Virus record (IMG/VR): IMGVR_UViG_3300044825_002173
Coordinates: 1,134-65,133 of that record
Origin: a virus
Lineage: Duplodnaviria > Caudoviricetes
DNA length: 64,000 nucleotides
Direction: 5' to 3' (one strand)
Shown here: piece by piece, positions 3,040 to 38,663 of the stretch
Position numbering within the stretch: the first letter of the stretch is position 1
Layout of the letters: each line of letters starts with the position of its first letter
Made by a program: the position numbers and the translations under genes
The notes under the pieces: generated by a model
The model's input: the letters and a program-made list of their open reading frames with translations, nothing else
Databases searched by the model: none
Told to the model about the DNA's origin: nothing

Positions 3040-4947
3040 TTAGATTTCTTTCACGAGAAGATGACGAGTTGAAACTTCTTCATCAACAAGTTCACCATTT
3101 AATTCATAAGAAGAAGAAAGTGATTGCAAATTAACTCCTCTTTGAGCAGCAATTTTTTGTGCTTGAGATAACTTTTGTTGAGCAGTATCAACATTTTTTC
3201 TTGCAGTTAAAACCTGACTAATTTGACTTGTGTTTTTTTGTTGAGATGATTTAGGTTCCTGTGTTTTTGGCTGAATAAGTTGTGCTGCCACTGATTGTTC
3301 TTCAATCTTTTCAATCATTTTAGAAAGAAGTGATTCTCTAATTGCTTCCTCTTTAGTTTGAACTTTTTTAGGAAGTCCTTCATGAGATGTCTTAGCAAAA
3401 TCACGAATTTTCTTTTCACTCATTGAATCAACAATGTTAAGAACTTCAGCACTTACTTCAGATCTTGGAGTTTCTCCTCTCTTTACAGAAAGAGCAAGTC
3501 CAAAAATCCTTTGCTGTTGCTTACTTTCTGATTTTTCAGAAAGTTGCAACTCCTCTTTTGTTAAACTTTTTAACAATTCATTTGCTTTTTTACGTTTTTC
3601 TGCTCTTTCTTTTTTCGCCTTTTCTTTTGCATCAATTTGTGCTTTTACATCCTCAACCGATGGACCACCTTTTCTTCTACGAGCACGACGTGGGTTTTTA
3701 GGTCCATCAGTTTTTATTGTCGTAGTTTTTACTTTTGGATTTGCTTTTGGTTTTGGTTTTGGTTTTTCTGGTGCAGATTTACCGACTCTAGGATTTTCTG
3801 ATGTTCCTTCAGATGATTTTGGTTTTTTAGGAGTTACATCTTTTACAGAGACTTTTTTAACTTCCGATTTAGATGGTTTTGGAGATCCTGCAACTTCAAT
3901 TTTTTTACCAGCACCAATTCCTCTGCGAAGACTTGGTGCTCTCGTTCCTGTCTTAGAATGAACTTCACTTGGTTTTTCTGGATTTTCTGGTTTTTCAACT
4001 TTCGTTTTCTTACCAAGTACTTTTTGAAGACCACGCTTTAATTTAGATGCAATTCTAGATAATAATCCAGGTTTTGATACAGAAGTAGAAGAACTATCAG
4101 ATACTTGAGATTGAGATTTTTCAGATTTGCCATGTCTACCTCTTTGGTATCCACTCGATACTTCTCTACGTAGTGCTTTTGCTCCTCTTACGGCAACTCC
4201 AGCAGCATATCCAGCACTTTTAGCAAGTGCTTTTCCCACTTTTTTAATAGCAGACTTAACTTTTTTAAGTCTGTCTTCTTTAATGGTAGTATCAGTATCT
4301 ACAGATTCACTTATGATTTGAGATGATACCTCCAGAGATTCTAAAAGAATATCTTGAATTTCTAATACATCATAACCTTCTTCAAGGCACTCTAAAAATA
4401 CTTCTTCTACGACTTGTTCGATCAAATTGTCGCTGAGAAAAAATATTTCAGATTCTGAAAGATGATCAAGAACTCCTTCAAAATCTTCTATTTCAGAAAA
4501 TTCTAAAAGAGTTCCTCCAAGATTTTCAATAGACTCTCTCATTCCATCACCAAGATCAATAGATGGATTGATGGTAATTTTATTTTCTACTTTCTTTTCA
4601 ACAACTTTTTCTGATTTTTCAATCTTATCAATTACTTCATATAAATCATTTCTCCAATTTGAGAAACCTTCCTTGATTTTTTTCTTTTTCTTAAACTTAC
4701 CAGAAACTTCTCCTGGTTCATATCCAATACCATCATCATCATCATCAAACCACTTCTTAATTTCTTTCGCTTCTTTTACCTTTTTTCTCTTAAACTTACC
4801 AGAAACTTCTCCTGGTTCATATCCAATACCATCATCATCATTATCCCACCAACGTTTTACTTTTGGTTTTTTTGCTTCATCAAGTTGTTGCCCAATAACT
4901 TGATTGAAATAAAGGTCAGTAATATCGTTTACAATATTATTATCCAT
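3040..4947 (-). CDS. modular late protein: duplicated DxDxDG peptide, acidic helical module, long basic region, DUF3008-like module
   Basis: 635-aa ORF; the segment SKQQQRIFGLALSVKRGE...MSEKKIRDFAKTSHEGLPKKV resembles DUF3008. Confidence 0.75.
   Translation of the reverse strand: MDNNIVNDITDLYFNQVIGQQLDEAKKPKVKRWWDNDDDGIGYEPGEVSGKFKRKKVKEAKEIKKWFDDDDDGIGYEPGEVSGKFKKKKKIKEGFSNWRNDLYEVIDKIEKSEKVVEKKVENKITINPSIDLGDGMRESIENLGGTLLEFSEIEDFEGVLDHLSESEIFFLSDNLIEQVVEEVFLECLEEGYDVLEIQDILLESLEVSSQIISESVDTDTTIKEDRLKKVKSAIKKVGKALAKSAGYAAGVAVRGAKALRREVSSGYQRGRHGKSEKSQSQVSDSSSTSVSKPGLLSRIASKLKRGLQKVLGKKTKVEKPENPEKPSEVHSKTGTRAPSLRRGIGAGKKIEVAGSPKPSKSEVKKVSVKDVTPKKPKSSEGTSENPRVGKSAPEKPKPKPKANPKVKTTTIKTDGPKNPRRARRRKGGPSVEDVKAQIDAKEKAKKERAEKRKKANELLKSLTKEELQLSEKSESKQQQRIFGLALSVKRGETPRSEVSAEVLNIVDSMSEKKIRDFAKTSHEGLPKKVQTKEEAIRESLLSKMIEKIEEQSVAAQLIQPKTQEPKSSQQKNTSQISQVLTARKNVDTAQQKLSQAQKIAAQRGVNLQSLSSSYELNGELVDEEVSTRHLLVKEI
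4689..4841. repeat. perfect 54-bp direct repeat, period 99 bp
   Basis: 4689-4742 is identical to 4788-4841; encodes DDDGIGYEPGEVSGKFK twice. Confidence 0.95.
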
Positions 4948-6238
4948 TAGAATAAATGCTTTCTTTTATTTTTCTATACTTATTTATGAAATTGACTCCA
5001 TATGCCTTTCCACCATACTGAAGATTTTCTTTTCCTGTTTCAATTGCTCCAGGAGTCTTACTTGCATAATGCTTAAATGCACCTAAAGTTCCTACAAGTG
5101 TATTTGGATGAGTTTTATCTCTCATTGGACTATCCATTTTAACTTCAGTATATTCTGTTAAATCTTTAATCCAAGACTTAAACATATATCCTTCTTCAGT
5201 TACACAGATTAGATGATTGGTTCCTCTACGCATTACTTCACCAATCAATCCAGTATTTAAATTTTGTATTTTATCTCCGATCTTAAAAATTTTACCAGTT
5301 ACATAATTTTCACGAAGATTTTTCATATCATATTTTGGAGCAATCTCCCAAAGATTATAACTTTCTTTTTGGACTTTTGTTTTCTTAATTTTCATTCCTT
5401 GACGAACTTGATCAAACAATGCTTGAGTTTCAGCATCATCTAATGTTTTTGGTGTTCCTCTTCTAAAAGTTGCAAAGTCATTATCCATTACTGCTTTTCT
5501 CATTTTAGATGCAGACATTCCCATCACACCTTCCGCATCAGCATCTCTAACTCCAGCAGAAATTACACGAATTAAATCAAAGTTGTAAAGATCTCCATTA
5601 TACTTTTGAGCAAGATTTTCAAATTCTGACTGACGATCAGATCCACATACAATATTTACATTTGCATATCCTTCCTCTGCGGCAGTCACTAATACATTGA
5701 ATATTGTTTTCATATCAGGATCATCAATAATATTGTCCTCGTATTGAGGAAACATTTTTCTCATATAATGAATTTTAACTTCAGGACTCAAAGGATTTTT
5801 TTTCGGATCTTGAGTTCTAGAAGGATATATTTTTAAGTCTCCACCAACTGATACTTTTTTTGCCATGTTAAAAGTCTTATCATGCCCAATTGTCGGTGGA
5901 TTAAATCTACCAAATACAATAGTGAGAGTACCACCTTCTTCCGGAACTTCTTCTTCTGGTGCTGGTGCTTGAATTCTTTGAGAAGCAGGTACTTGCGCTT
6001 TTGTTGATTGTGGTTGTGAGGTTACAGGTGCTTGTACTCCTTTTGCTTGTGCTGATGGTTCTTTAGATGCTTGTCTGCCATCAAGAAATACCAACTTTCC
6101 ACCCTCAGTTTTTGCGACCATTTTACCGGAGCGATTCAACCATCCACCATGACCATCACCAGTTAATCCTAGTTTTTTGGCCTGTAAGGATGCTTGAGAT
6201 TCTCTTGCTTCGGATAAAAATCGTAAAAAATTTTTCAT
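4940..6238 (-). CDS. cyanophage-type cytidyltransferase (HxGH nucleotidyltransferase superfamily) with N- and C-terminal extensions
   Basis: FGRFNPPTIGH, CGSDR and SASKMR motifs. Confidence 0.88.
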   Translation of the reverse strand: MKNFLRFLSEARESQASLQAKKLGLTGDGHGGWLNRSGKMVAKTEGGKLVFLDGRQASKEPSAQAKGVQAPVTSQPQSTKAQVPASQRIQAPAPEEEVPEEGGTLTIVFGRFNPPTIGHDKTFNMAKKVSVGGDLKIYPSRTQDPKKNPLSPEVKIHYMRKMFPQYEDNIIDDPDMKTIFNVLVTAAEEGYANVNIVCGSDRQSEFENLAQKYNGDLYNFDLIRVISAGVRDADAEGVMGMSASKMRKAVMDNDFATFRRGTPKTLDDAETQALFDQVRQGMKIKKTKVQKESYNLWEIAPKYDMKNLRENYVTGKIFKIGDKIQNLNTGLIGEVMRRGTNHLICVTEEGYMFKSWIKDLTEYTEVKMDSPMRDKTHPNTLVGTLGAFKHYASKTPGAIETGKENLQYGGKAYGVNFINKYRKIKESIYSNG

Positions 6239-6286
6239 ATAATTGTTTTTATATTTTTATTTATTTTTATCGCTTTTTTATATTTA

Positions 6287-6359
6287 TGGAGATAAGGGGG
6301 CACGATCCCCTAACCCCCAGCTTGCAAAGCTGGTGCTCTACCAATTGAGCTATATCCCC
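6287..6359 (-). tRNA. trnA: tRNA-Ala (anticodon UGC), CCA not encoded
   Basis: GGGGATA/TATCTCC acceptor stem with G3-U70; D-arm AGCTCAATTGGTAGAGC; anticodon arm CCAGC-TTTGCAA-GCTGG; T-arm AGGGG-ATCGTGC-CCCCT. Confidence 0.93.
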
Positions 6360-6369
6360 AGGTTTAAAT

Positions 6370-6407
6370 ATTATAAAACCCTCTCAACTAAAAAGTCAAG
6401 AGGGTTA
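6370..6407 (-). promoter_or_regulatory. sigma70-like promoter for the tRNA, overlapping a hairpin
   Basis: TTGACT-N18-TATAAT; hairpin AACCCTCTTGACT-TTTT-AGTTGAGAGGGTT probably also terminates upstream transcription. Confidence 0.7.
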
Positions 6408-6429
6408 GAGCAACCTTCCGATTTATTTA

Positions 6430-7587
6430 TCAACCACGAGAAGAATCAAGAATGTTATTTCTCCAATCTTCACTCATGTTAACCATGATTGCTTCTGCAG
6501 ACTCAACACTATCAGCATATCCTTCATCAAGAAGATGCTCAAGAACCACATCATAAAGATCAAGAGTTTCAACTTCTTCAATTAAATATGACTCTACTAA
6601 ATTAGAGGTTTGATCATCACACAAATTCTCAATTAGGTCGTATGCTTCATAAACATTGTTCACATATCCATCATTAATCAGGTCTTGAACTAAGATATCT
6701 AGAAGTTCAAAACTCTCTGAAGCAGTAAGTCTTGCTTCTCTTTTTTGTGCTTGTATTCTGGATTTTTTGGTTTTAAAAGTACCAGCAGGTTGTCCTTGTT
6801 GAACCGTTTCGGATGGACCAGATCCAGAAGCTGCTGAAGCAAGTTTAGCAGCTGCTGCTTTTCTTCTATCTACGGAAACTGTCTTAGTTTTTGCTGCAGG
6901 AAGTGCCGGTCTCTCTTTTCCAGGTTGTCCAATTCTTGGATTTGCTGAGGTTCCAACTGGAGATGCTTTAAATTCACTAGTATCTCTTCCTCTAGAAGCA
7001 GCTGCTTGGCGTCTAGCAGCTCTTCTCATTTCTCTACCAGTTGTTCTTGCTTTTGCTTCTCTTGCAGATTGTCCACTGAACTCTTTCTTAGCAGCAGAAG
7101 CACCTGCTTTAACTGCACTGCCAACTCTCTTAACTAGACCAACGATTTTTTCTTTAGCAGACTTAAGTTTACCACCAACTTTTGCAGCACCACCTGCTGC
7201 AGCAGAAACTGCTCCAGCACCTAGTGTCTTTGCTCTTTCTCCTGCTCTTTTTGCAGCACCCTTAATTCTTTCCATTCTTGCTGTTCTTCTTTCAGAAGCT
7301 TCAGCAGATCTCTTTGATTTAGTGGTTGATTTATTATATGCTTTTGCTTCTTTAGAACCTGCAGGAGCATATGGATTCATTTCTAAAATGAGTCCTTCAA
7401 AAACTTGAACACATTCAGAAAGTTCTACACCTTCAGAAAGAATTTCTTCCATTACTTGATCAAGTTCATTGTCACTTAAATCATCAATAAAAGAAAGATC
7501 TTCTTCGATAGAAATATCATCACGAAGTTCTTCATCATAAACAGCAACATATGCTTCACACAAACCTCTAATCTGTTTTGAGTCCAT
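6430..7587 (-). CDS. late hypothetical protein: acidic ends with LLDEGYA module, Ala/Lys/Arg-rich core
   Basis: 385-aa ORF; TATAAATA at 7615-7622; paralogous modules in 25162..26232. Confidence 0.8.
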   Translation of the reverse strand: MDSKQIRGLCEAYVAVYDEELRDDISIEEDLSFIDDLSDNELDQVMEEILSEGVELSECVQVFEGLILEMNPYAPAGSKEAKAYNKSTTKSKRSAEASERRTARMERIKGAAKRAGERAKTLGAGAVSAAAGGAAKVGGKLKSAKEKIVGLVKRVGSAVKAGASAAKKEFSGQSAREAKARTTGREMRRAARRQAAASRGRDTSEFKASPVGTSANPRIGQPGKERPALPAAKTKTVSVDRRKAAAAKLASAASGSGPSETVQQGQPAGTFKTKKSRIQAQKREARLTASESFELLDILVQDLINDGYVNNVYEAYDLIENLCDDQTSNLVESYLIEEVETLDLYDVVLEHLLDEGYADSVESAEAIMVNMSEDWRNNILDSSRG

Positions 7588-7614
7588 TTGATAATTTTTA
7601 TATTTTCTATGGAT

Positions 7615-7622
7615 TATTTATA
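7615..7622 (-). promoter_or_regulatory. T4-type late promoter
   Basis: Exact TATAAATA. Confidence 0.75.
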
Positions 7623-7630
7623 AAATAAAA

Positions 7631-8044
7631 CTATCCACCTCTTCCTTTTGTGCCATAAGTTCTTCCAGATCTTGCAATATTTGTTCCTCTTCCTCCAGCA
7701 GTTCCTTTCTTAGCATATCTGTGCTGAGTAATTACATCCGGTTCCGCAGGAAGATCTGTTCTTTGAACATTGCTGGTTGTTCCAACTCTACTTGCAACAT
7801 CTTTTGGTTTTGATGCATAACCACCAACATATGAATTTGGTTTCGTCTGTGGTTTTGGTTTATCGCTAGTAGCAGCTCCTATTTTTGCCTGAGTTCCTGC
7901 TTGAAGTTCGCCCGCCTGAACATTTAATTTCTTAAATGTTTCCATATCGCCTTTTTGCATTGCTTGTCTTGCCTTTGCTCTTAATGCTGCAATTTGAGAA
8001 GAAACGTTTTCTGCTTCAGCAATAAACTCCGAAAAAGTTTTCAT
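7631..8044 (-). CDS. putative internal head protein
   Basis: Likely start ATG at 8044: MKTFSEFIAE resembles the T4 IPII/IPIII capsid-targeting sequence; basic body. Confidence 0.75.
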   Translation of the reverse strand: MKTFSEFIAEAENVSSQIAALRAKARQAMQKGDMETFKKLNVQAGELQAGTQAKIGAATSDKPKPQTKPNSYVGGYASKPKDVASRVGTTSNVQRTDLPAEPDVITQHRYAKKGTAGGRGTNIARSGRTYGTKGRGG

Positions 8045-8075
8045 TACACCTAAACACTTTTTAGTATTTATCAAA

Positions 8076-8585
8076 TTAAACCAATTCCATTGGATAATGC
8101 TCAGAATCTATGTTTATAGTTTTTTTCTTTTTTTTCTTTGCTTCGTTAACTGGAGCAAGAGCAAATAATCCAGGATTTTTTTCTCCAAATTTTCTTACGA
8201 TTGTTCCTGCAAGTCTATTTGCTTCATTTTCTGTAGGACTTCCTGCCTTACCACTTCCATGAACTCCATAACTATGTTGACCATAATGAGTAAGTTCATG
8301 CGCTAATGTTCTTAGAATATCCATAATCTGACGACCTTTAATAGAAATCATAATACGATTATCTTTAATCTGACCAAATGCTGCAATTCTTTTTGCAAAC
8401 TTAGGATCATCAACAAAATGAATTTTTGGTAGTTTTTTGATTTTTAATTCTTTTTTTACAAAAGGAAGAAAGTTATGAACTATATTTTCAAATTGTTTTG
8501 TTGATATTCCTTCTGCAATAAAAGACAGTGAAATGATGAACATCTCACTGTCTCTTTGAAGTTTTCTCCACTCAGAAAAATACAT
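8076..8585 (-). CDS. putative zincin-like metallopeptidase
   Basis: LRTLAHELTH (HExxH) and downstream ENEAN motif. Confidence 0.7.
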   Translation of the reverse strand: MYFSEWRKLQRDSEMFIISLSFIAEGISTKQFENIVHNFLPFVKKELKIKKLPKIHFVDDPKFAKRIAAFGQIKDNRIMISIKGRQIMDILRTLAHELTHYGQHSYGVHGSGKAGSPTENEANRLAGTIVRKFGEKNPGLFALAPVNEAKKKKKKTINIDSEHYPMELV

Positions 8586-8605
8586 TGTCGTTTTCTAAGT
8601 ATTTA

Positions 8606-8791
8606 TTATTCTCCAACTACAAATTCAATTCCATCATCAAGTTGTCGAATCACTCCACGAATATCAGTTACACGAGGAGGAACACTCACTTCATCATAAG
8701 TATATCCTTTTTGAGAATCAAACAAAACTTGACGAACTGCTGCGGCACTACGAGCATCAAGTTTTAGAGTTACTTGTTTTTCTTTAGTCAT
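8606..8791 (-). CDS. small hypothetical protein
   Basis: 61-aa ORF with ATGA coupling to mazG. Confidence 0.7.
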   Translation of the reverse strand: MTKEKQVTLKLDARSAAAVRQVLFDSQKGYTYDEVSVPPRVTDIRGVIRQLDDGIEFVVGE

Positions 8792-9192
8792 AGATCTCCC
8801 ACCTTACGATTTTCTGAGCGTTCAATACTAAATGCACCTTCAGGATAACGAGCACTTAGTTTTTCAAAGTTCATTTGGATTACTTCTTCAATAGAAATAT
8901 CAAGTCCAATACATGCCTGTGAAACATACCACATAATATCTCCAAGTTCACGCTTTAGATGAAAAAGATTTTCTTCATTTACAGGTTTACCTTGGAATAC
9001 AATTTTTTTCACCACCTCAGTAAATTCACCTGCCTCAGCACTCATACCTACAGCAGCAGTAAGCAATCGCTCAGTAGGAAATCCTTTTTCACGAAGTTCA
9101 AGGAGACGATCGATGAAAGGTGTGTGTTCTTTACTAGGATTAGAGGTAGTGGCATTAACGAACTCAACATACTTGTTCAAATCAATAGTCAT
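8788..9192 (-). CDS. mazG: MazG-like nucleoside triphosphate pyrophosphohydrolase
   Basis: AEAGEFTEVVKK...ELGDIMWY...NFEKLSARYP motifs. Confidence 0.92.
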   Translation of the reverse strand: MTIDLNKYVEFVNATTSNPSKEHTPFIDRLLELREKGFPTERLLTAAVGMSAEAGEFTEVVKKIVFQGKPVNEENLFHLKRELGDIMWYVSQACIGLDISIEEVIQMNFEKLSARYPEGAFSIERSENRKVGDL

Positions 9193-9614
9193 TAGAATTT
9201 AAATCCTTCGAATGTTTTTTTGGGTTTCTTTTCTTCATAATCATACTCTTCATCCTTTCCGTTGTCAAGAATATCTTGTTGAGCAGATTGTTCGCAATCA
9301 TAAAGACGCATTTTAGCACGATCAATACCAATCACAAAACGCTTATGAATGGTAGGATCATTATAGCGATTCTTAAGTTGTTTAACAAGAATCTGTCCAA
9401 GTCCTTCAAGTTCTTCTGTAGAAATCAAAGCAAACATCAAGTCAGCAGTAGCAGGCAAACCAAATGACTCTGAAGTATCGGTCAATTCCACATCAGAACT
9501 ACTATTATGCGTGAGAATATCATTCGCATAGAACAGATGATTTCCAGACACTTCAATATCTACAAGTTCTCTTTCATCAAGTTCTTCAATTTTTAGAATT
9601 TTTTTCAATAACAT
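9192..9614 (-). CDS. gp41: DNA helicase gp41, C-terminal fragment fused to split-intein IntC
   Basis: MLLKKILKIEELDERELVDIEVSGNHLFYANDILTHN|SSSDVELTDTSESFGLPATAD...KQLKNRYND: IntC with terminal HN|S, then the helicase C-terminus. Confidence 0.95.
   Translation of the reverse strand: MLLKKILKIEELDERELVDIEVSGNHLFYANDILTHNSSSDVELTDTSESFGLPATADLMFALISTEELEGLGQILVKQLKNRYNDPTIHKRFVIGIDRAKMRLYDCEQSAQQDILDNGKDEEYDYEEKKPKKTFEGFKF
9504..9614 (-). mobile_element. split intein C-fragment (37 aa, gp41-1 type)
   Basis: Block F/G motifs DIEVSGNHLFYAN and THN, followed by Ser+1. Confidence 0.95.
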
Positions 9615-9616
9615 TT

Positions 9617-10929: not shown

Positions 10930-10933
10930 ATCA

Positions 10934-10973
10934 GTAAGTTATACTACTATTATTTATAAGAAGTATAACTTAC
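10934..10973 (-). promoter_or_regulatory. late promoter TATAAATA inside a perfect 12-bp inverted repeat upstream of the endonuclease
   Basis: GTAAGTTATACT...TATAAATA (10958-10951)...AGTATAACTTAC, ending 4 nt before the ATG. Confidence 0.85.
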
Positions 10974-10978
10974 ACATA

Positions 10979-16291: not shown

Positions 16292-16474
16292 TTAGTCGCC
16301 ATTCCCACCACCATCACCAGCACCAGATCCAGGATTAATTGGAACTGCTCTACCAGCACCAACATTTGTGATTATAGATTTACCTCTTTTATTGGTACGA
16401 TAAACTTTATGTGGTTTTGCTGCTGGATACGAAATTGTTTTTATTTCGTTAAAAAATTGGCGGAAAGATTTCAT
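16292..16474 (-). CDS. small putative internal head protein
   Basis: MKSFRQFFNE N-terminus (capsid-targeting-like), basic middle, Gly-rich tail. Confidence 0.6.
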   Translation of the reverse strand: MKSFRQFFNEIKTISYPAAKPHKVYRTNKRGKSIITNVGAGRAVPINPGSGAGDGGGNGD

Positions 16475-16487: not shown

Positions 16488-16922
16488 TTAGAGATAGTCC
16501 TTTCGTGCGTGATGTTCTGGAACTATTTTCCCAAGTACGATCCGTAGAAGTCCGTCTTCGAATACAACCTCCCTGACTTCTGTGTCGTCGGATAAAGTCC
16601 ACGCTCGTTTAAAACTTCTGCTAGCCACTCCCTTGTGGATAAACGTCCTATCCGATTCGGTATCTGCTTTTTGTCCTTCGACAAAAAGTTTTCCATACTC
16701 TGTGTATACATTTACTTCTCCTTTTTTGAATCCTGCAAGTGCAAGTTCCAGATGGGATTCAACATTATTTATTTGAATAAGATTATACGGCGGATAATTT
16801 GTAGTGGTTTCATGAAGATTAAATAAACGATCAAAGTATTCATCCATTCCAATGCTATTGCGAGTAATCTTGTCCATTAAGGATGAAAGATCCGCAGCAG
16901 TATACCTTGCGAGGTTAGTCAT
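16488..16922 (-). CDS. hsp20: small heat shock protein Hsp20
   Basis: NYPPYN, LALAGF, HKGVASRSFKRAW, FEDGLL; start MTNLARY after an AAGGAG SD. Confidence 0.95.
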   Translation of the reverse strand: MTNLARYTAADLSSLMDKITRNSIGMDEYFDRLFNLHETTTNYPPYNLIQINNVESHLELALAGFKKGEVNVYTEYGKLFVEGQKADTESDRTFIHKGVASRSFKRAWTLSDDTEVREVVFEDGLLRIVLGKIVPEHHARKDYL

Positions 16923-16996
16923 TATAGTAGCTCCTTTACAGCGAGTTTGTGTTTTGTGGATCCTTTTCGGCATCCAATACTAATTATACAAGAAAC

Positions 16997-25161: not shown

Positions 25162-26232
25162 TTACATTCCATACTTTTCAAAATCAGCTCGCGCATCTGC
25201 AGCTGCTTGCTTATGTTGATTTTGCCTATATTCTCCGGATTTCGATCTATTTTTTCTCGCCTGAGAAGTTGAATATTTTCTTTCAATAGGAGTATCTAAT
25301 TTATCTGCCACAATTCTAAGGACATCTCCACGATCACCGCCAAGTCTTTTTGCTTGTCTTTCTATTTTTCCTCGATTCATTCTTTTAAATCCTTCGTCTA
25401 AAACTTCCCCACACCACTCTTCACTCATATTCATAAGAATTACTTCAGCACCTTCAACAGTTTCGGCATATCCTTCATCAAGAAGATGTGAAAGGATGTA
25501 GTCATATTCCTCTTTACTGAGAGCACGTCTTCTAGCAGTAGATGCTCCAAGAGTGCGCCCAAGAGCACCTCCAGCGGCAGTAAGAACTTGAGTGTGACGT
25601 TTAACACCTTTATGAGTAGCAACTCTTGCTTGCCTTGCCAGTCTAGAATCACTTGCTGTATTTAAAGCATCAATTCCAGTTTTAACTGCTTTACCTACAG
25701 TTTGAGCGGTTTTTTTAGTCAATTCAATATCCTGCTTGGCTTTCTTAACAGCACCGCCAAGAGCAGCTCCAAGTCTTCCAGCAATTCCCATTCTAGTTTG
25801 AGTTGGAGTTGAGGAAGATGCTGGTTGTTTTGCTTGTGCGGATGCAACAGCACCTTCTCTTTTCTTAATTACACCAGAAACTCCACCAGAAATACCACCT
25901 CTTACGGTTCCACCATATTTTTTAATAGCTGCTTTTGTGGTGCTTTGCGGTCTGCTTCCCTTAGGTCCAACTAAAATTTTATTTTTCTTATCTGCCATTT
26001 TTTGGAGGCGAGTTTGAGATGCCTCTTCCAAATAAGACTCCTCTACAATTTCATCAACCCAATCAACAAACTCATCTTCACCAAGTTCTTCAATTAGAAT
26101 ATCAATTCCATACTCATTCAGACCCATCTCATAGAAATACTCAGTAGCAATTTCAACCTCTTCACTAATATACTGAGGTTGATAAACAGAAATATATGCT
26201 TCTGAAAGATTGCGAATGTCTTTTGCGTCCAT
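25162..26232 (-). CDS. late hypothetical protein with LLDEGYA module and basic core
   Basis: TATAAATA at 26253-26260; shares motifs with 6430..7587. Confidence 0.8.
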   Translation of the reverse strand: MDAKDIRNLSEAYISVYQPQYISEEVEIATEYFYEMGLNEYGIDILIEELGEDEFVDWVDEIVEESYLEEASQTRLQKMADKKNKILVGPKGSRPQSTTKAAIKKYGGTVRGGISGGVSGVIKKREGAVASAQAKQPASSSTPTQTRMGIAGRLGAALGGAVKKAKQDIELTKKTAQTVGKAVKTGIDALNTASDSRLARQARVATHKGVKRHTQVLTAAGGALGRTLGASTARRRALSKEEYDYILSHLLDEGYAETVEGAEVILMNMSEEWCGEVLDEGFKRMNRGKIERQAKRLGGDRGDVLRIVADKLDTPIERKYSTSQARKNRSKSGEYRQNQHKQAAADARADFEKYGM

Positions 26233-26252
26233 TGTTACAAATACTTTTTAGT

Positions 26253-26393: not shown

Positions 26394-26407
26394 TATTCTT
26401 AAGAGGT

Positions 26408-29422: not shown

Positions 29423-29917
29423 TCAATAGCGAAGTTTAGAATGCACTGCGTCTTTAATCGAATTATAGTCGCTATAGTTGCTTCCGTCAATAGAGTTGTC
29501 CTCAAATACTTCAGAGTATCCAGAACGCTCAAGGATTTTGTTCTTGATTTCTAACTGACGCTTCTCTCTTTGAATACGACGAAGAAAAGCGTAGTGAATG
29601 ATTTGAGTGAAGTAAGCAAAAGGATTCTGTGACTTCTCAGGATTGAAGTTGTGAATATACTGAACGCAGTTTTCAATACCATCGGAAATCATGTCTTCCT
29701 TAAACATATAGTTTACGAAGTTAGGTTTAAAGGAAAGATGATTTGCGATCTTCAGGAAACACTCTCCAATGTAGCGAGGAATGGGAGGTTTTGGTTTTCC
29801 TTGAATCTCTGCGATTTCTTTATCTTCGCGGTATTTAATCAATGCTGCAAGAAACTCTTTGTTATTGACGTAATGCTCTGACCTCTTTCTTTTGGTCATG
29901 ACTGCTGTGGTAATCAT
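29423..29917 (-). CDS. gp55: late sigma factor
   Basis: HYVNNKEFL, DMISDGIENC, NPFAYFTQI, AFLRRI. Confidence 0.96.
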   Translation of the reverse strand: MITTAVMTKRKRSEHYVNNKEFLAALIKYREDKEIAEIQGKPKPPIPRYIGECFLKIANHLSFKPNFVNYMFKEDMISDGIENCVQYIHNFNPEKSQNPFAYFTQIIHYAFLRRIQREKRQLEIKNKILERSGYSEVFEDNSIDGSNYSDYNSIKDAVHSKLRY

Positions 29918-29942
29918 AAGTTTTTATCATTATTATGTATAA

Positions 29943-29993: not shown

Positions 29994-30021
29994 TACCTTT
30001 GTCGAGGTTGAAAAGATTGAT

Positions 30022-31876: not shown

Positions 31877-31903
31877 ATCATTAATGATGCTATGAGTATT
31901 TAT

Positions 31904-32341: not shown

Positions 32342-32886
32342 AAAGGATTTCCGCCAAGATCAACTATATTGTAAATAGTATACTTGAAACTAACATCTGC
32401 TGTAAAGTATTGTATATCTGTATTTGTGGCATCAAAGATTAAAGTTGACAATGAATATGGAAATAAATCTTTAAAAACAATTTGAAAATTTGGTATCTGA
32501 CTACTAGTTAAAACTTGTAAAGTTCCATCAGAATATATGTTTTGTCTATCTTTTGGATAATTTGCTTGAATTTGTCCAGATTTTTCTAAATCCTCAAATT
32601 GACTTAACCTTTCTGGAAATCCAAGACCCCGAATCCAATTTTGAATTTGCATGTAATTTTCAAGATTTTCATCTACCAAAAATCTTAAATTTAAATCACC
32701 AAATTCTATAATGTCACCTGGAGTTGGCAACATTTTAGTATAAGATGGTTGTGTAGCTACTCCAAGATTTAAATCAGGAATATTAGCTTCATTACAAAAA
32801 AAACCAACCTTTGGAGTTCTTGTAAGAGTAAATTTAAATCCTGTTGGTGATAAAAAATTTCTATTCTCTATTTGTCCTACTGTCAT
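32338..32886 (-). CDS. gp3: tail completion / sheath stabilizer
   Basis: NFLSPTGFKF...ANIP...PGD...LRFLVDENLENY...WIRGL; downstream of gp23. Confidence 0.88.
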   Translation of the reverse strand: MTVGQIENRNFLSPTGFKFTLTRTPKVGFFCNEANIPDLNLGVATQPSYTKMLPTPGDIIEFGDLNLRFLVDENLENYMQIQNWIRGLGFPERLSQFEDLEKSGQIQANYPKDRQNIYSDGTLQVLTSSQIPNFQIVFKDLFPYSLSTLIFDATNTDIQYFTADVSFKYTIYNIVDLGGNPL

Positions 32887-32906
32887 CTTTTTTTAAATAT
32901 TTAGAT

Positions 32907-32934
32907 AAAAAAAGAGGACCCCGAAGGATCCTCT
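32907..32934 (-). terminator. intrinsic terminator after gp23 (UUCG tetraloop)
   Basis: AGAGGATCC-TTCG-GGGTCCTCT-TTTTTT. Confidence 0.9.
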
Positions 32935-32955
32935 GTATTTCTTATGTGAAATAGA

Positions 32956-34389
32956 TTACATAAGATTTTTCACCGCAACTCTTCTGTAGTAACGGTTAGA
33001 GTTGACTTGGAGACGACCAAGACCCTGATCAAGACCCTCAGCGAATGGGTTAGCAACAAGACCATAGCGGGTCTTAAAGCCAATCTTGGGTTGGAAGCTG
33101 TTCTCACCAACGGCACGTACCATTTGGAGAGGAACATAAGGACAATAGAAGAGTCCAGCGTCATAAGGTGATGAACCCTTATAACCTACAACATAATACT
33201 GATTGCCAGGAGATGCATTACCTGAAGTGAGGTTAGCAGCATATGGGTCAATGTAGACACGGAATTTGCCCATGAGAGTACCAGCAAAGGTGTTGCCGGT
33301 GTCGTCTACGTTGAGGTTTGCGTTGAGTGCAGGGGTGTAGTCGAGAACACCAGCCATGGTCAGTGCTGAAGCAACGTCAGCAGAGCACATGATGATGTTA
33401 CCCTTTCCTCTACGAGTTCTCTGAGCGATAGCGTTAGCATCACGCTCAATTTGGAACAGAAGACCCTTGAACTTCTCAACAGACCAACGACCATTGGAGT
33501 CGATGTCTAGGTCAAAGATACCAGCAGTTGCAACGTTCTGAACAGCACCTTGCTCAGCAACTTTATAGATGGTACGAATAACTTCGCGGTTGATCTCAGC
33601 AAGAATCTCAGTTGAGAGAATGTTTGCGAGTTCCGCTTCAGCATTCAGTCCATGAATTGCCTTGAGGTCCTGAGCGAGTTCGAGTGAATACTCAGCTTTC
33701 AGAGCGCGTGACTTTGCAGTAACAGTGACTTTCTCGATTGAGAATGCCATCTGGTTGAACTGGTCACCATTTACGCCATCGCCAAGTGCTTCTGCATCAC
33801 CAGTTGGCATACCTTGACCAACGTTATAAGCAGTTTGACTGCCAGCACCACCGACTGGGTTGAGGACTGATGGATTAGAACCTGTTTGTGCAGTCGTACC
33901 AATACCAGCAGCAGTGCTACCGAATCCAACAACATCAAATGCTGAGTTTTGACCAGAATATGCAGTATCTACTTCGTTGTAGAATGTTTCTGCTCCACTC
34001 TGATTGGTGTAGCGAGAACGCATTGCAAAGATGAGTCCTGTTGGACCACTCATTGGTTGAACGCCTGCGAGGTCATAAGCGACCAGGTTAGGCATTGAAC
34101 GACGAATGAGTGAAATTAGAACGGGGTCAAAACCTGCGGTAGGACCACCAGCAGCAGCACTACCACCAAATCCTCCACCAAATCCAGCAGCATTGCCACT
34201 GTTTGTTGGTGATTCCATCAGGTTAGTAATACCACCTGAATTAAATGCTGACTCTTCTCTTAAGAATTTTTCTTGGTTTTCGAGCAGGACAGCGGTTACA
34301 GCTCTACGATGAGAATCTTTGATTGGATCAAGACCCTGATAGTCGAGAAGAGGTGCCCACTTTTCCTGCAGATGCTCGGAATGAAACAT
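32956..34389 (-). CDS. gp23: major capsid protein
   Basis: KWAPLL, VQPMSGPTGLIFAMR, KSRALKAEYSLELAQDLKAIHGL, FQPKIGFKTRYG. Confidence 0.98.
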   Translation of the reverse strand: MFHSEHLQEKWAPLLDYQGLDPIKDSHRRAVTAVLLENQEKFLREESAFNSGGITNLMESPTNSGNAAGFGGGFGGSAAAGGPTAGFDPVLISLIRRSMPNLVAYDLAGVQPMSGPTGLIFAMRSRYTNQSGAETFYNEVDTAYSGQNSAFDVVGFGSTAAGIGTTAQTGSNPSVLNPVGGAGSQTAYNVGQGMPTGDAEALGDGVNGDQFNQMAFSIEKVTVTAKSRALKAEYSLELAQDLKAIHGLNAEAELANILSTEILAEINREVIRTIYKVAEQGAVQNVATAGIFDLDIDSNGRWSVEKFKGLLFQIERDANAIAQRTRRGKGNIIMCSADVASALTMAGVLDYTPALNANLNVDDTGNTFAGTLMGKFRVYIDPYAANLTSGNASPGNQYYVVGYKGSSPYDAGLFYCPYVPLQMVRAVGENSFQPKIGFKTRYGLVANPFAEGLDQGLGRLQVNSNRYYRRVAVKNLM

Positions 34390-34444
34390 TTGCGTTTTAC
34401 CTTTTTACTAAGTGTTTGTTTTTTGCGTTTGAATTATATTAAAT

Positions 34445-35611
34445 TCAATTTTTTCTAAATCCTGAAAGTGTTCTCAGGTAAGCAGCCATTGCATCAGAAA
34501 CTGGTTCTTGAACTGCTTCAGTGCTTTCCGAAAGAGTTTCAGTTTTAGCTGAAGGAGAAACTACTCTTGAAGGAAAATATGATTCCTTCAAAGTCTCCAG
34601 TTTTTCACGATATTCTGTTTCACTTTCAAACTCAACACTTTCGGCAAGTGAAGCGAGCTTGTCTTTCTGAGTGTCTGCAAGACCATCAGCGACCTGTTCA
34701 AAGATTCCATCAGCAACCGACTCTGCGAGACGCTTGTTTAGGGAAACATTCTTTTCGATTTGCTCGTTGAGTTTTGTCTCCATTTCATCAAGTTTTTCTA
34801 CCATGCTCTCAAGCACATCATATTTATCTTCAGGGATTGATACATAATGTTCTTCAAAAAGACCTTTCATTCCTTGGAGGAATGATTCGGTCATTTCGGT
34901 CTTAAGACCTTGCTCAATGACGAGTGCATTTTCTTGCATCCACTCGTCAGCAACATACTCTAGATAAGCATCTACACGCTCGCTGAGTTCTAATTTAATT
35001 TCTTCAACTTCCTCAGCAAGAGCAACTGCATATTGCTCCTCAAGTGCTTCCTGAATATCAGAAACCTTGGAGCGAAGAGCAGCTTCAAAGATAGTGCGTG
35101 CTTTTTCTTGGAACTCTTCGGAGAGTTCTTCACCTTCTAGAAGAGCATTGACATCTTCTTCAATGTCAAACTCTTCTTCCATTTTCTTTTTCTTACCACC
35201 CTCTTCTTCCTCTTCTTCTTCGCCTTCCTCTTCTTCCTCTTCTTCCTCTTCCTTATGCTTAGCTTCTACAAGTTCTTCGTCCTCATCACTTTCTTCATCG
35301 ATTAAATCTTCATCATCCAGTTCTTCTTCTTCTTTCATACCCTTCATTGCTTCCGCAGACTTAGCTCCCTTATTTACAACATCTTTAACTTGCTTAAGAG
35401 TTGCTCCTGGGGTTTTAAGTTTTGCTGAGTCATCATCTGGACGATAGTTGGAAGGATCTGGACCACCAAGATCTTCCCAACCTGCGGTTTGACCATCAGG
35501 AATACCTGTAGTTAGTTTTGGCATCGCATCCGCTGCTTTAGCATTAGCATTAACAGCGGTTCTGGATTGCTTAGTGCCTACTTCCATTTCTTGTAAATCT
35601 CCACGAGACAT
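34445..35611 (-). CDS. gp22: prohead core scaffold protein
   Basis: LSEEFQEKARTIFEAA, YLEYVADEW; very acidic; between gp21 and gp23. Confidence 0.93.
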   Translation of the reverse strand: MSRGDLQEMEVGTKQSRTAVNANAKAADAMPKLTTGIPDGQTAGWEDLGGPDPSNYRPDDDSAKLKTPGATLKQVKDVVNKGAKSAEAMKGMKEEEELDDEDLIDEESDEDEELVEAKHKEEEEEEEEEGEEEEEEEGGKKKKMEEEFDIEEDVNALLEGEELSEEFQEKARTIFEAALRSKVSDIQEALEEQYAVALAEEVEEIKLELSERVDAYLEYVADEWMQENALVIEQGLKTEMTESFLQGMKGLFEEHYVSIPEDKYDVLESMVEKLDEMETKLNEQIEKNVSLNKRLAESVADGIFEQVADGLADTQKDKLASLAESVEFESETEYREKLETLKESYFPSRVVSPSAKTETLSESTEAVQEPVSDAMAAYLRTLSGFRKN

Positions 35612-35649
35612 TTGAACTCTCCGTTTAACCTTTAGTTATAAACTATATT

Positions 35650-35657
35650 TATTTATA
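35650..35657 (-). promoter_or_regulatory. T4-type late promoter
   Basis: Exact TATAAATA upstream of gp22. Confidence 0.75.
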
Positions 35658-35667
35658 ATTTAATAAA

Positions 35668-36318
35668 TTACAATGAGTTTAAAAACTCATTAAAAAGTGA
35701 TAATTTATATTCCTCAAGAATTCTTTGATCAACTAAGTTATTTATTTTAATTTTTGTATTCTCTGCTACTCTTTCTTTTAGAATTCCACCATCCCAACAC
35801 CACTCTTTACCTTCCATAATTCCTTGAACAAAAGCATCAGGTGCTGAGGGGTCTGCAACAATGTCAGCAGCAGTTGCAAGCATAAAATCTTCGCCAACTT
35901 CTTTATATCCTTTATTATTTTCTCTTAGTGAACCAATACCACGAGAAGAAACGCCAAGACAAACACCTTCTTTAAGAAGTGATTCTGCAATCTTACCCAT
36001 TGGAGTGGAAAGAATCTGTGCCTTACCAATAAAATTGTTTCCTTCTTGTGTAAGAGAAACAATCTTATGTGATACTCTGTCAAGATTTACAGTAGGGCCA
36101 TCAGGATGTCCTAGTTCTCCAAGAGCACGACCCTTATCTACATACTGCTCAGTATATCTTTTTACTTCACGCTCCATAATGGACATAGGATACATACGTC
36201 CATTACGATTGACGCATTCTGCCTGTAAAAAAGGACCCTGAATGTAGAGTTTTTGGTTAGTACCTTTTCCTTCAGTAATAACTTCTACCTTTTCGATTTC
36301 TTCTGTGATGAGTTTCAT
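35668..36318 (-). CDS. gp21: prohead protease
   Basis: NRNGRMY, ALGELGHP, GVSSRGIGS, DIVADPSAPDA. Confidence 0.96.
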   Translation of the reverse strand: MKLITEEIEKVEVITEGKGTNQKLYIQGPFLQAECVNRNGRMYPMSIMEREVKRYTEQYVDKGRALGELGHPDGPTVNLDRVSHKIVSLTQEGNNFIGKAQILSTPMGKIAESLLKEGVCLGVSSRGIGSLRENNKGYKEVGEDFMLATAADIVADPSAPDAFVQGIMEGKEWCWDGGILKERVAENTKIKINNLVDQRILEEYKLSLFNEFLNSL

Positions 36319-36875
36319 TATGCTTGACCTGTGATTTGTACTTGTTGGTAATAAAGAGTTCCTGAACCTGCTCCATAAGCAGAAACTTTATTTGAAATTG
36401 ATATTGTTGCATCTAAAGGTGCAAATGCAGTTACAATTCCACTTGAATTATTAGCAACGGTCATTCTAGTTTGATAATATCCATTTACTCCTGCAGAAGT
36501 ATCAACCGATAATACTTCTTTATGAGTAAAATCGTAATAAGATTGACCACTTGCACTTAATGTTACATAATCACCAACACCAAATGGAACTTGAGTACCT
36601 TCTGGGACAGTAACAATTGTTGTTGTTCCAGTCGTCACTCCAACAACACGATTCGATGCTTTGGTAAGAGCAAGTGTTGCAGTTCCACCTGAAGGAATAT
36701 AATAATCAGTATTTGTAGCAGAAGGAGTTCCTACTCCAATTTTGACATATGCACCTGCACCTTCAGCAACAACTCTCAGAACACTTGATTGAACTGTAAA
36801 AGAGTTTGCCGATGTTGTTGCAGTGCCTGCTGAAAATGTAAATGAGGAACCAACCCCAACTGGTCTATGAGCCAT
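36318..36875 (-). CDS. hypothetical (probable virion) protein
   Basis: 185-aa Thr/Gly/Val-rich ORF; TAATG coupling to gp21; late promoter-like AATAAATA upstream. Confidence 0.75.
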   Translation of the reverse strand: MAHRPVGVGSSFTFSAGTATTSANSFTVQSSVLRVVAEGAGAYVKIGVGTPSATNTDYYIPSGGTATLALTKASNRVVGVTTGTTTIVTVPEGTQVPFGVGDYVTLSASGQSYYDFTHKEVLSVDTSAGVNGYYQTRMTVANNSSGIVTAFAPLDATISISNKVSAYGAGSGTLYYQQVQITGQA

Positions 36876-36908
36876 TATTTTAAATATACACTTTTAGTTA
36901 TTTATTAT

Positions 36909-38339
36909 TTAATAAATCTCTCTCCACTGAAGAGCAGCAGCAACGTTAGCAGTAGCATTACCTGTAGTAGTAATGGTTCTTACAGCAAGCACATAAATTT
37001 CAGAGTTTGATGAATCAATATTTTGAACAATGATATTTTTCTTTGCAGCACTTAATGCTCCAGAAGCAACTGGTGAAAGTGAGTTTTGTGATGCGCCAGA
37101 AGGAACATAGCCCGATGCAAATTCATCACCATCACTATAAGTTGTAGCATCCACACAATATTCAACTCCACTATTGGCAGAGGCAGAAGTCCAAGTTAAA
37201 GTTCCAGCATTGCTCAAATAAGCAGAACTTGGAAGTTTCACGACCCTATAAATGATACTATTTGTTTCACAATGTATTGAAAGGTTATTTAACCTTACTG
37301 ATATTCTATTTGGATATCCTTGGAACGTATTTTTGAGACGAATTGCGATCAATGGAAGTTCAGTTCCTGCTGGTGTTGGAGTTGTTCTTGATGTGGTCAT
37401 TGTAACAGCAAAGTCAATACCACTTTCTACATATCCACCTTCCGACATTACAGAAGAACAGATTTGATCAAAAGATGCTCCAATACCAACACCAGTGTTT
37501 CTAATTTCACAACGAACTGGTAAATTTGGATTGGCAATATAAACAGTTGCTAGATTGTTAGAGTGGTAAAATTCGTGTGCTGTGATAAGTTGTCCATTAT
37601 GAGCAAAACCACAACGAACTCTACCAACACCTAACCACTGGAAATCTATAAACGCAAGTTGAGTTTTTGTGACATCTAAATCAAATCCAGATGTTCCTGT
37701 ACCATCACACTTGTCTCTGTTCCATTGTGATTGTGGAATTCTGGTTTCTGTTGCAATTCCACTTGTAAAAGATCTAATTACCCAGTTGAGAGTTCCAATA
37801 TCAGGGTTTACCCCATCTGAGGTATTAATTCCAACTTGCTCAAGATAGATTCCATCTCTATCATCAAAATATCCCGTTCTTTTCGTTGCGTTTTGTTGAG
37901 GGGCATAAAAGTTAAAAGAACTAAAAATTAATTGCCCTTTTCCTGGTTGATAATGATGATAAAATTTTGTTTGGTGAATACAAGACGCTGTAGATCCAAT
38001 CCCAGTTTGTAATCTTGCTGCTGCCTGGTTTTGGAAGAACGTTACCGTTGAACCTGCCCCAGAAACACTATCTAAAAAGTTTGGGTCAATAGCATAAACG
38101 TGCTTATAGTCACCAAGAGTAAATAATTCAGAAACTCTTGCTCTACCAAATGCATCAACAGCATTTGTATCTGGATTGATAGTTATAAGAGTTTCAGAAG
38201 AAATTCCAACCGTTCCCGTAACTGGAAATGGATTTTGTGGACTAATTATTCGACCATCGCTTGATGCAACACCTACAACTTCAAATAGAGATCTTTCCTG
38301 ATTAAGATAATCTTGAGTTGTTATATTCCACTGAGCCAT
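36909..38339 (-). CDS. hypothetical (probable virion) protein
   Basis: 476-aa beta-rich ORF in the head gene cluster (DAFGRARVS, YQPGK, IDFQWLGVGRVRCGF). Confidence 0.75.
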   Translation of the reverse strand: MAQWNITTQDYLNQERSLFEVVGVASSDGRIISPQNPFPVTGTVGISSETLITINPDTNAVDAFGRARVSELFTLGDYKHVYAIDPNFLDSVSGAGSTVTFFQNQAAARLQTGIGSTASCIHQTKFYHHYQPGKGQLIFSSFNFYAPQQNATKRTGYFDDRDGIYLEQVGINTSDGVNPDIGTLNWVIRSFTSGIATETRIPQSQWNRDKCDGTGTSGFDLDVTKTQLAFIDFQWLGVGRVRCGFAHNGQLITAHEFYHSNNLATVYIANPNLPVRCEIRNTGVGIGASFDQICSSVMSEGGYVESGIDFAVTMTTSRTTPTPAGTELPLIAIRLKNTFQGYPNRISVRLNNLSIHCETNSIIYRVVKLPSSAYLSNAGTLTWTSASANSGVEYCVDATTYSDGDEFASGYVPSGASQNSLSPVASGALSAAKKNIIVQNIDSSNSEIYVLAVRTITTTGNATANVAAALQWREIY

Positions 38340-38342
38340 TTA

Positions 38343-38663
38343 TCAATCAATCCATTCTAATTTTGATGGGTGGTATCTTTGTGCGTTTTTGATGTTTAAA
38401 TTTTTTTCCATTACAGGATAAATTTGATGAACAACTGCTCCTGGATAGTCTAGTTGTAATTGCTCACCAAGTTCTCTAGTAGAAGGAATGCCAGTTTTAG
38501 TGACTAACTCCAAACGATATAAACTACCTTGCCACATTACATCGGCAACATATTCTTCACCAACTTGCTGTGGTTGTTCTGGTTCTGAGTTGATATAAAG
38601 ATTTCCTGTGAAATCGCCAGCAATATTAACTGATTCTGAGATAAATTGCTTGAAGGATTTCAT
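38343..38663 (-). CDS. putative internal head protein
   Basis: MKSFKQFISE capsid-targeting-like N-terminus; domain similar to a module of 45718..47625. Confidence 0.75.
   Translation of the reverse strand: MKSFKQFISESVNIAGDFTGNLYINSEPEQPQQVGEEYVADVMWQGSLYRLELVTKTGIPSTRELGEQLQLDYPGAVVHQIYPVMEKNLNIKNAQRYHPSKLEWID

Follow-up and report, generated by a model that had tools for sequence, protein, structure and literature searches.

A ten-residue N-terminal leader resembling the T4 capsid-targeting sequence on unrelated proteins of a marine T4-like cyanomyovirus

The stretch of DNA analysed here, referred to as the window, is 64 kb (positions 1,134 to 65,133) out of the 65-kb virus record IMGVR_UViG_3300044825_002173, the completeness of which is estimated at 34%. 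Almost all window genes are carried by the minus strand, and four of them, all on that strand, begin with variants of one decapeptide: MKNFLRFLSE (start at 6238), MKTFSEFIAE (8044), MKSFRQFFNE (16474) and MKSFKQFISE (38663). Judged by its genes, the source phage is a marine T4-like cyanomyovirus, and at the protein level its nearest cultured relatives are the Synechococcus phages Bellamy, S-SM2 and S-SCSM1. When the six-frame translation of the window was searched with the pattern MK.[FY]..F[ILFV].E, exactly four matches were found, every one of them an ATG start on the coding strand, and a looser expression returned the same four only, whereas 200 mononucleotide shuffles of the window gave a mean of 0.01 matches and a maximum of 1. 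After removal of the first 12 residues the four proteins fell into four separate BLASTP clusters at E<=1e-5 and are therefore unrelated beyond the leader, which bears out what the initial annotation of this DNA had noticed, namely four otherwise unrelated open reading frames (ORFs) with a common ten-residue start. The codons of the leader differ among the four genes, which argues against a recent duplication of DNA and for a likeness selected at the protein level. The four genes are listed below, a slash marking the putative cleavage position.

4940..6238, minus strand: protein of 432 residues, leader MKNFLRFLSE/A (bases 6238-6209); basic, mature isoelectric point (pI) 9.2, 47 kDa
7631..8044, minus strand: protein of 137 residues, leader MKTFSEFIAE/A (bases 8044-8015); mature pI 10.4, 13 kDa, G/R-rich tail
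16292..16474, minus strand: protein of 60 residues, leader MKSFRQFFNE/I (bases 16474-16445); mature pI 10.4, 5 kDa
38343..38663, minus strand: protein of 106 residues, leader MKSFKQFISE/S (bases 38663-38634); acidic, mature pI 4.7; phrog_1742

The T4 internal proteins IPII and IPIII carry a capsid-targeting sequence (CTS; Mullaney and Black 1996, summarised in PMC9026906 and PMC3012670, both cited here from excerpts). According to the excerpts of PMC9026906, the first ten residues of IPIII are enough for packaging, and amber-suppressor work mapped targeting mainly to positions 4 and 7 and processing to positions 8 and 10; the propeptide of gp23 has 65 residues, the motif cut by gp21 is L/I-X-E, and gp22 is cleaved at a Glu-Ala bond. 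In the T4 genome the DNA form of the motif has three matches and the reversed control none. Two of the matches are ipII and ipIII, which both start MKTYQEFIAE/A and so agree with the leader that the initial annotation had given for them, and the third is gene 61.1 (NC_000866 18966-19130, minus strand), which lies in the primase gene cluster and codes for a 54-residue hypothetical protein beginning MKTFKEFIKE. All four window leaders occupy the extreme N-terminus, residues 1-10, and all four retain F4 and F7, that is, aromatic residues at both targeting positions, as well as E10, with L, I or F at position 8. Strict L/I-X-E at residues 8-10 is found in three of the four (LSE, IAE and ISE) and the variant FNE in the 60-residue protein, while residue 11 (P1') is A, A, I and S, so that three of the four have Ala or Ser there; the leader is predicted to form a short amphipathic helix. 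The leader of the 137-residue protein is identical to that of IPII and IPIII at eight of ten positions and also at P1'. Shared with T4 are the N-terminal position, the length of ten residues, M1, K2, an aromatic residue at 4, F7, I/L8, E10 and Ala at P1'; the difference is at position 4, which is Phe in the cyanophage leader and Tyr in IPII and IPIII. The cyanophage decapeptide, M-K-(S/T)-F-x-(Q/E)-F-(L/I)-x-E, appears to be the counterpart of the T4 CTS.

The window also encodes both a gp21-type protease and a gp22-type scaffold. Its genes were identified by PHROG searches and by alignment with T4 proteins, and those for the head and for late transcription are as follows.

29423..29917, minus strand: gp55-type late sigma factor (phrog_234, late sigma transcription factor, E=1.7e-67)
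32956..34389, minus strand: gp23 major head protein (phrog_138, E=6.9e-169; 200 identical columns with T4 gp23 in a MAFFT alignment)
34445..35611, minus strand: gp22-type head scaffolding (core) protein (phrog_237, E=1.8e-107; alignment with T4 gp22)
35668..36318, minus strand: gp21-type prohead maturation protease (phrog_207, head maturation protease, E=3.7e-82; 82 identical columns with T4 gp21)
38853-40538: portal (PHROG/T4 alignment)

Residues 57-60 of the window gp23, NLME/S, are the MAFFT-aligned counterpart of the T4 propeptide junction FLTE/A, and the specificity of the gp21 protease therefore looks conserved between the window phage and T4. The window gp22 contains ten [LIVMF].E[AGS] sites. 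A predicted complex of gp21 with residues 1-40 of the 137-residue family, run without controls, scored 0.00 against a mark of 0.32, which weighs on neither side. Further genes of the window are those for both terminase subunits, DNA polymerase, helicase and Hsp20.

The 432-residue protein is the cytidyltransferase of phrog_395 (E=3e-100); its orthologue in P-SSM2 is PSSM2_194, which is T4-GC190, and the orthologue in S-SCSM1 is 56% identical. When published virion data were matched to leader-bearing genes, the tagged nucleotidyltransferase was found in purified virions of S-SM1, S-SCSM1 and S-SZBM1. In the accessible text of Sullivan et al. 2010 (PMC3037559) the citidylyltransferase T4-GC190 was detected in virions of S-SM1 and not in those of S-PM2; SSM1_190, which is T4-GC190, starts MKKFSAFLNE, and S-PM2p139 is without the leader and is annotated as fused to the C-terminal half of DUF6267. 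In S-SCSM1 the NMNAT encoded by ORF91, which starts MKSFLQFLKE, was found by mass spectrometry, and as far as the available parts of that paper go (PMC9602691) its authors were undecided between a carried protein and a contaminant, though they suspected carriage. S-SZBM1_140, which starts with the one-residue-shorter variant MRFRQFIIE/A, stands in the 30-protein virion table of that phage with an exponentially modified protein abundance index (emPAI) of 0.26 versus 2.83 for the portal (PMC9146016 Table 1), and this ratio, taken with 12 portal copies, gives a rough estimate of one copy per head; S-SZBM1_139, the downstream neighbour of the S-SZBM1 cytidyltransferase, is also in that table. The virion list of S-CREM2 likewise includes a cytidylyltransferase, and its authors, in the excerpt seen of PMC10665884, suspect carriage and cannot tell cargo from contaminant. 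No targeting or packaging signal is named for the enzyme in the accessible portions of the papers on S-SM1, S-SCSM1, S-SZBM1 and S-CREM2. The proposal made at the outset that the cytidyltransferase is a packaged protein thus finds support in its orthologues in the virions of three phages (T4-GC190 of S-SM1, ORF91 of S-SCSM1 and S-SZBM1_140).

The scan of T4-like genomes for the motif, which the initial annotation had put forward as a check, gave 12 matches in 14 complete phage genomes, with at least one in 8 of the 14, and the reversed-pattern control gave none in any of them. There were three matches in T4, two each in P-SSM2 and S-SCSM1 and one each in S-SM2, S-SM1, Syn9, S-SZBM1 and KVP40. 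With matches in 8 of 14 genomes the strict motif is common but not universal among T4-like phages; four matches in 64 kb make the window rich in it. The single match of KVP40 (AY283928 39187-39834, KVP40.0066) starts a 215-residue protein with the stretch DYGAGKYG, which we take to resemble an S-adenosylmethionine-methyltransferase motif. The nucleotidyltransferase of HTVC008M (KC465899, about 107.2 kb) starts MKTLKELLRK, which is hydrophobic at positions 4, 7 and 8 and has Lys in place of Glu at position 10.

A codon-restricted form of the pattern was then used to scan IMG/VR, where at least 119 stretches with the motif and 117 control loci with the reversed pattern were obtained; the counts that follow refer to the loci listed. 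The motif is largely restricted to ORF starts: at least 128 matches lie in the 119 loci, and in 104 of the 128 (81%) the motif begins at the first ATG of a frame 40 residues long or more, a share that falls to 444 of 3141 (14%) when every ATGAAR of these loci is counted. The other 24 comprise six preceded, at a distance of a few codons, by at least one further ATG, seven internal matches and 11 in short open frames. The leader is also portable across unrelated proteins, as the 115 listed proteins of at least 40 residues (the seven internal matches included) together with the four window proteins formed 61 clusters, 51 of them singletons, after the first 12 residues were removed. When the seven internal matches were dropped, Pfam domains found among the 109 leader proteins were CTP_transf_like (16), AAA_33 (9), DUF6267 (8), adenylate kinase (4) and RimK-type ATP-grasp (2), with DnaJ, SET, GNAT and HAD once each. 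The positions that the pattern leaves unfixed are biased in the 98 listed leader ORFs, with S or T at position 3 in 74, Q or E at position 6 in 55, L or I at position 8 in 80 and A or S at position 11 in 57. How the leader is joined to a protein can be seen in DUF6267, which begins M..KNTHLEHLED, without the leader, in S-SZBM1, P-HM2 and S-PM2, and which in the IMG/VR locus L048 has the ten residues simply prefixed, MKSFLSFISE followed by SKNTHLEHLED. DUF6267 proteins (loci L039, L048, L257, L258 and L278) have a K-W-D-G stretch, presumably akin to the KxDG of nucleotidyl-transferring ligases, and their gene adjoins that for the cytidyltransferase in several cyanophages; in S-PM2, p138 and p139 look like a split DUF6267 gene fused to the nucleotidyltransferase. 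The motif loci are enriched in T4-like context, since relatives of non-cargo window proteins were found in 77 of the 119 versus 27 of the 117 controls (Fisher p=9e-11), and at least two such relatives in 53 motif loci versus 13 control loci.

Retention of the leader within families was examined in sets of relatives that were chosen independently of the motif. In the 137-residue family the strict leader is present in 81 of 82 metagenomic homologue clusters, the remaining one starting MRTF..., and conservation along the protein is highest in the first ten residues (0.87 vs 0.39-0.77). In the 106-residue family it is present in 120 of 120, these being the best 120 of 825 homologue clusters. Among nucleotidyltransferases found by the catalytic domain alone, 116 of the 120 listed have the leader, and the four that appear leaderless comprise two fragments and two sequences with a miscalled start, a short way inside which the leader is found. 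The listed relatives are close, at 76-100% identity, and the test is therefore not a deep one.

By its motifs the 432-residue protein is a member of the HxGH nucleotidyltransferase superfamily, to which the cytidylyltransferase-like enzymes PPAT, NaMNAT and NMNAT belong. It consists of a small beta module (LGL..DGHGGW) at about residues 20-55, a disordered P/Q-rich linker at 59-97, the nucleotidyltransferase at 104-281 and a small C-terminal beta domain at 323-362. Against the Pfam model CTP_transf_like (PF01467) it scored 15 bits, under the cutoff of 21. The AlphaFold model, with a mean predicted local distance difference test score (pLDDT) of 73.6, shows a leader helix, the beta module, the disordered linker, a Rossmann-like nucleotidyltransferase and the beta domain, and Foldseek matched it to PPAT, NaMNAT/NadD and NMNAT with template-modelling scores normalised to the target, TM(target), of 0.6-0.68, E about 1e-5 and probability 1.00; this fold search separates no substrate class, as PPAT and NMNAT structures score alike. 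In the alignment of the family FGRFNPPTIGH and MSASKMR are nearly invariant, and we take these to be the (H/T)xGH and SxxxxR-type motifs of the superfamily. A sequence search of the PDB for a name of the substrate was of no use, as its sole match was a spurious WH2-like one: residues 271-292, TQALFDQVRQGMKIKKTKVQKE, aligned with the WH2 repeats through which N-WASP binds actin (3m3n_W, E=0.0019), a likeness that is probably fortuitous and due to a basic amphipathic helix. Where the leader is attached varies within the family: it precedes an extra N-terminal module, or stands a few residues from the catalytic FGRFNPPTxGH, or is joined to the C-terminal domain alone. In the IMG/VR loci L025, L051, L091 and L106 the leader-tagged nucleotidyltransferase has a C-terminal P-loop kinase fused to it, a layout that we assume to resemble the NadR architecture; the kinase part matches the AAA_33 and Zeta_toxin models and not the ribosylnicotinamide-kinase model.

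As for the other three, the 137-residue protein had no match by tblastn in 50,697 phage records, T4 included, and neither had the 60-residue protein in the same collection. The gene for the latter sits between those for Hsp20 (16488-16973) and DNA polymerase, and one homologue among the listed IMG/VR loci (L061), which starts MKTFHQFLSE/I, has the same gene neighbourhood. The 106-residue protein is encoded in the head module, on the stretch that separates portal from protease, and its family is conserved in cyanomyoviruses, with matches in 135 phage records, all of them cyanophages. Its model has a mean pLDDT of 69.5 and no PDB match at E<=0.001, and the ESM Atlas gave unnamed viral clusters; the nearest structures, none of them significant (E=0.29-0.66, TM(target) 0.58-0.61 over about 52 residues), include T7 Gp2 (E=0.29) and YkzG, both small RNA-polymerase-binding proteins. 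T4 gp68 was considered as its counterpart and rejected, as the N-terminus of gp68 is unlike it and no sequence similarity was found, so that the likeness is one of position only. The mature parts of the tagged proteins showed no homology to T4 IPI, IPII or IPIII, the 137-residue and 60-residue proteins having no T4 match and the 106-residue protein matching cyanophages only; by sequence comparison they are analogues of the T4 internal proteins and not members of their families. One further gene of the window has relatives with the leader:

45718..47625, minus strand: DUF5661 protein of 635 residues, between the terminase subunits, with its own ATAAATA and without the leader in the window

Homologues of this DUF5661 protein in the T4-like contigs L035, L077, L137 and L103 start with the leader, which is sometimes followed by a Cys-rich insert, and near 47220-47363 the window gene has a weak internal similarity to the 106-residue protein (E=5e-5).

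The late-promoter element ATAAATA occurs 32 times on the coding strand of the window versus twice on the other, and 18 of the 66 window genes have a copy no more than 80 nt upstream, among them those for the 432-residue and 137-residue proteins and the operon of the 106-residue protein.

6287-6281 and 6264-6258, minus strand: two ATAAATA late-promoter-like elements of the gene for the 432-residue protein, starting 49 and 26 nt before its ATG
8065..8071, minus strand: ATAAATA of the gene for the 137-residue protein, starting 27 nt before its ATG
38850..38856, minus strand: ATAAATA of a 53-residue gene (38665-38826), starting 30 nt upstream of its ATG

The gene starting at 38663 has no ATAAATA within 80 nt upstream; the stop of the 53-residue gene overlaps its start (ATGA), and the two are translationally coupled. 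The gene starting at 16474 has CTAAATA only, 16 nt upstream, and no canonical late promoter. A TAAATA-like element upstream of all four had been claimed, and this holds as ATAAATA for 6238 and 8044 and, by way of the 53-residue gene, for 38663, leaving 16474 with its CTAAATA. Five consecutive genes at 3040-8585 (minus strand), among them those for the 432-residue, the 137-residue and an HExxH protein, each have their own ATAAATA 21-49 nt upstream and make up a late-gene island within the replication module, adjoining mazG-like and helicase genes. A tRNA-Ala(TGC) at 6286-6360 (minus strand) lies directly upstream of the cytidyltransferase promoter, the distal ATAAATA overlapping the 3' end of the tRNA, and S-SM2 has a tRNA-Ala in the same neighbourhood.

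The HExxH protein (ORF 8076-8585), a putative peptidase with the N-terminus MYFSEW...SFIAE/G, had been credited with a related leader. As tagged cargo it had to be given up: its four phage-record matches align only from residue 30-31, the S-SRM01 protein (MSLIGKRKG...) has no leader, and the IAE/G at residues 23-26 is not distinctive, [LIVMF].E[AGS] being common. The varied cargo that the initial annotation had pictured is thus found, with at least 61 clusters among the listed matches, and the two enzymes it had counted in the window are reduced to one. A different common N-terminus is shared by the paralogous late-promoter genes at 6430-7587 (minus strand, 385 residues) and 25162-26232 (minus strand, 356 residues), namely MDSKQIRGLCEA and MDAKDIRNLSEA, each followed by Y, and an IMG/VR homologue of these paralogues (L105) starts with MIETKELRSLQEA, also followed by Y; an L-x-E/A site at residues 9-12 suggests a second class of propeptide cut by gp21.

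By analogy with T4, the tagged genes would be read mainly from gp55-dependent ATAAATA late promoters, and during prohead formation the leader helix of each precursor would dock on the scaffolding core of gp22. The gp21 protease would then cut after Glu10 at L/I-X-E, usually before Ala or Ser, freeing the mature protein inside the head, and whatever survives maturation would be ejected together with the DNA. We consider it likely that a T4-type CTS works in Kyanoviridae in this manner, the nucleotidyltransferase being a true low-copy cargo of the head, the two small basic proteins cargo of the internal-protein kind, and the 106-residue protein either cargo or a transient component of the core.

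Several observations weigh against this. The NMNAT of S-SCSM2R has the leader (MKSFSKFFSE/A) and is not among the proteins that the available text names from its 23-protein virion proteome. The expectation that the 106-residue protein is a virion protein was not borne out either, as its family is absent from the 30 proteins of S-SZBM1 Table 1 and the S-SCSM1 copy, SSCSM1_30, is annotated as hypothetical and not as a virion protein. Among the 14 genomes the strict motif is absent from RB49, Aeh1, HTVC008M, P-HM2, S-PM2 and GAP32, and the nucleotidyltransferases of P-HM2 and GAP32 are without the leader. In IMG/VR, 42 of the 119 listed motif loci have no similarity to window proteins, and a T4-like context is therefore unproven for those. 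An enrichment of the motif behind late promoters, which had been proposed as a check, was found and is two-fold, yet it is modest, with 21 of 95 leader ORFs versus 156 of 1313 others in the listed loci (odds ratio 2.1, p=0.006). The motif also stands on T4 gene 61.1, the record of which says hypothetical protein, not virion protein, so that the motif alone is no proof of packaging. Finally, the 60-residue protein is encoded within the replication module, its putative cleavage site has F at P3 and I at P1', and its gene is preceded by CTAAATA only, 16 nt from the ATG.

A rather improbable alternative, though the best placed of those considered, is that the leader does target the prohead core and that some or all of the tagged proteins are assembly components that are cut up and expelled as the head matures, like T4 gp67 and gp68, and are not injected. 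It fits best for the acidic 106-residue protein of the head module, the gene for which lies between portal and protease and adjoins the gp67-like 53-residue gene and a gene for a virion structural protein, an adjacency that is kept in 10 of the 14 listed IMG/VR loci having the family; the family is missing from two virion lists, and T4 gp68 is present in 240 copies in the prohead and in none in the mature head (PMC9026906, as excerpted). The nucleotidyltransferase, however, is present in mature virions of three phages. The 106-residue protein would give few tryptic peptides of usable size, as read from its sequence, and its non-detection is therefore weak evidence; it has no apparent similarity to gp68, from which it differs at the N-terminus, and its family matches only cyanophages.

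It is less probable still that the common N-terminus has nothing to do with the capsid and is an A/T-rich start that favours initiation, with AAA as second codon, or a generic amphipathic tag for a membrane or a partner. This would sit well with the position of T4 61.1 and of the window 60-residue gene in clusters of replication genes, with the merely two-fold enrichment behind late promoters and with the 42 of 119 listed loci that have no demonstrable T4-like context. However, what is conserved are amino acids whose codons vary, at the positions that were mapped functionally in T4, the bias to Ala and Ser at P1' fits a protease site, a tagged enzyme is found in virions, and the enrichment in T4-like context among the listed loci (p=9e-11) is strong. 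Chance resemblance of short hydrophobic or acidic N-termini, in favour of which nothing speaks except the brevity of the motif, is hardly credible with four matches in the window versus 0.01 expected, 12 versus none for the reversed control in the 14 genomes, and 81% versus 14% at ORF starts among the listed IMG/VR matches.

If the decapeptide is taken as a CTS, which we prefer, the system can be set beside those already described. As in T4, the tagged cyanophage proteins are mutually unrelated and mostly small and basic, and the genome encodes gp21 and gp22; unlike T4, the phage infects a marine cyanobacterium and belongs to Kyanoviridae and not to Straboviridae. The window cargo includes a 47-kDa multidomain enzyme, and across marine T4-like contigs many enzyme families have the leader, whereas the T4 CTS proteins are small and non-enzymatic. 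T4 has a low-copy head enzyme of another kind in the ADP-ribosyltransferase Alt, with 40 copies per head, which gp21 processes and which is ejected into the host (PMC9026906, in excerpt); Alt, unlike the proteins with the cyanophage leader, has an N-terminal propeptide of seven residues (MELITE...) and a C-terminal one, and it belongs to another enzyme family. Giant phages of the SPN3US/phiKZ type also have a prohead protease that cuts head proteins and carry a bolus of ejected proteins, a likeness drawn from partial descriptions only; they stand outside the T4-like group, and GAP32, the sole jumbo phage scanned, lacks the strict motif.

In the T-even coliphages it is already established that diverse cargo can stand behind one conserved CTS (PMC3012670, in excerpt), and the present result is therefore an extension and not a new principle. 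The presence of the cytidyltransferase in virions had also been published, and the leader as the reason for it was not found in print; the literature searched, PMC2993671 included and most subscription journals lying outside it, described neither a cyanophage leader of this kind nor its distribution among enzyme families. T4-like cyanophages count among the ocean's most abundant viruses, and several groups have found the cytidyltransferase or NMNAT-like enzyme in their particles, where, in the parts of their papers available, authors could not separate cargo from contaminant; the leader offers a mechanism by which the enzyme would get there. The ten-residue motif, which could serve to predict packaged proteins of uncultured marine phages, already stands on about 60 unrelated cargo families among the listed IMG/VR matches, and the reach of the CTS as a tool of T4 engineering would be extended to a second phage family. 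More tentatively, as a possibility that we hold to be somewhat less than even, the decapeptide may be the address label of a large unrecognised set of proteins that are carried in the head of abundant marine T4-like phages and injected, many of them enzymes of nucleotides and cofactors that act before phage expression. If so, the candidate set consists of NMNAT-like enzymes, sometimes fused to a kinase, adenylate kinase, RimK-type ATP-grasp, the ligase-like DUF6267, DnaJ, SET and GNAT proteins, the injected enzymes could for example sustain NAD+ or adenylate pools against abortive-infection defences, and the injected proteome of uncultured ocean phages would become predictable from sequence alone.

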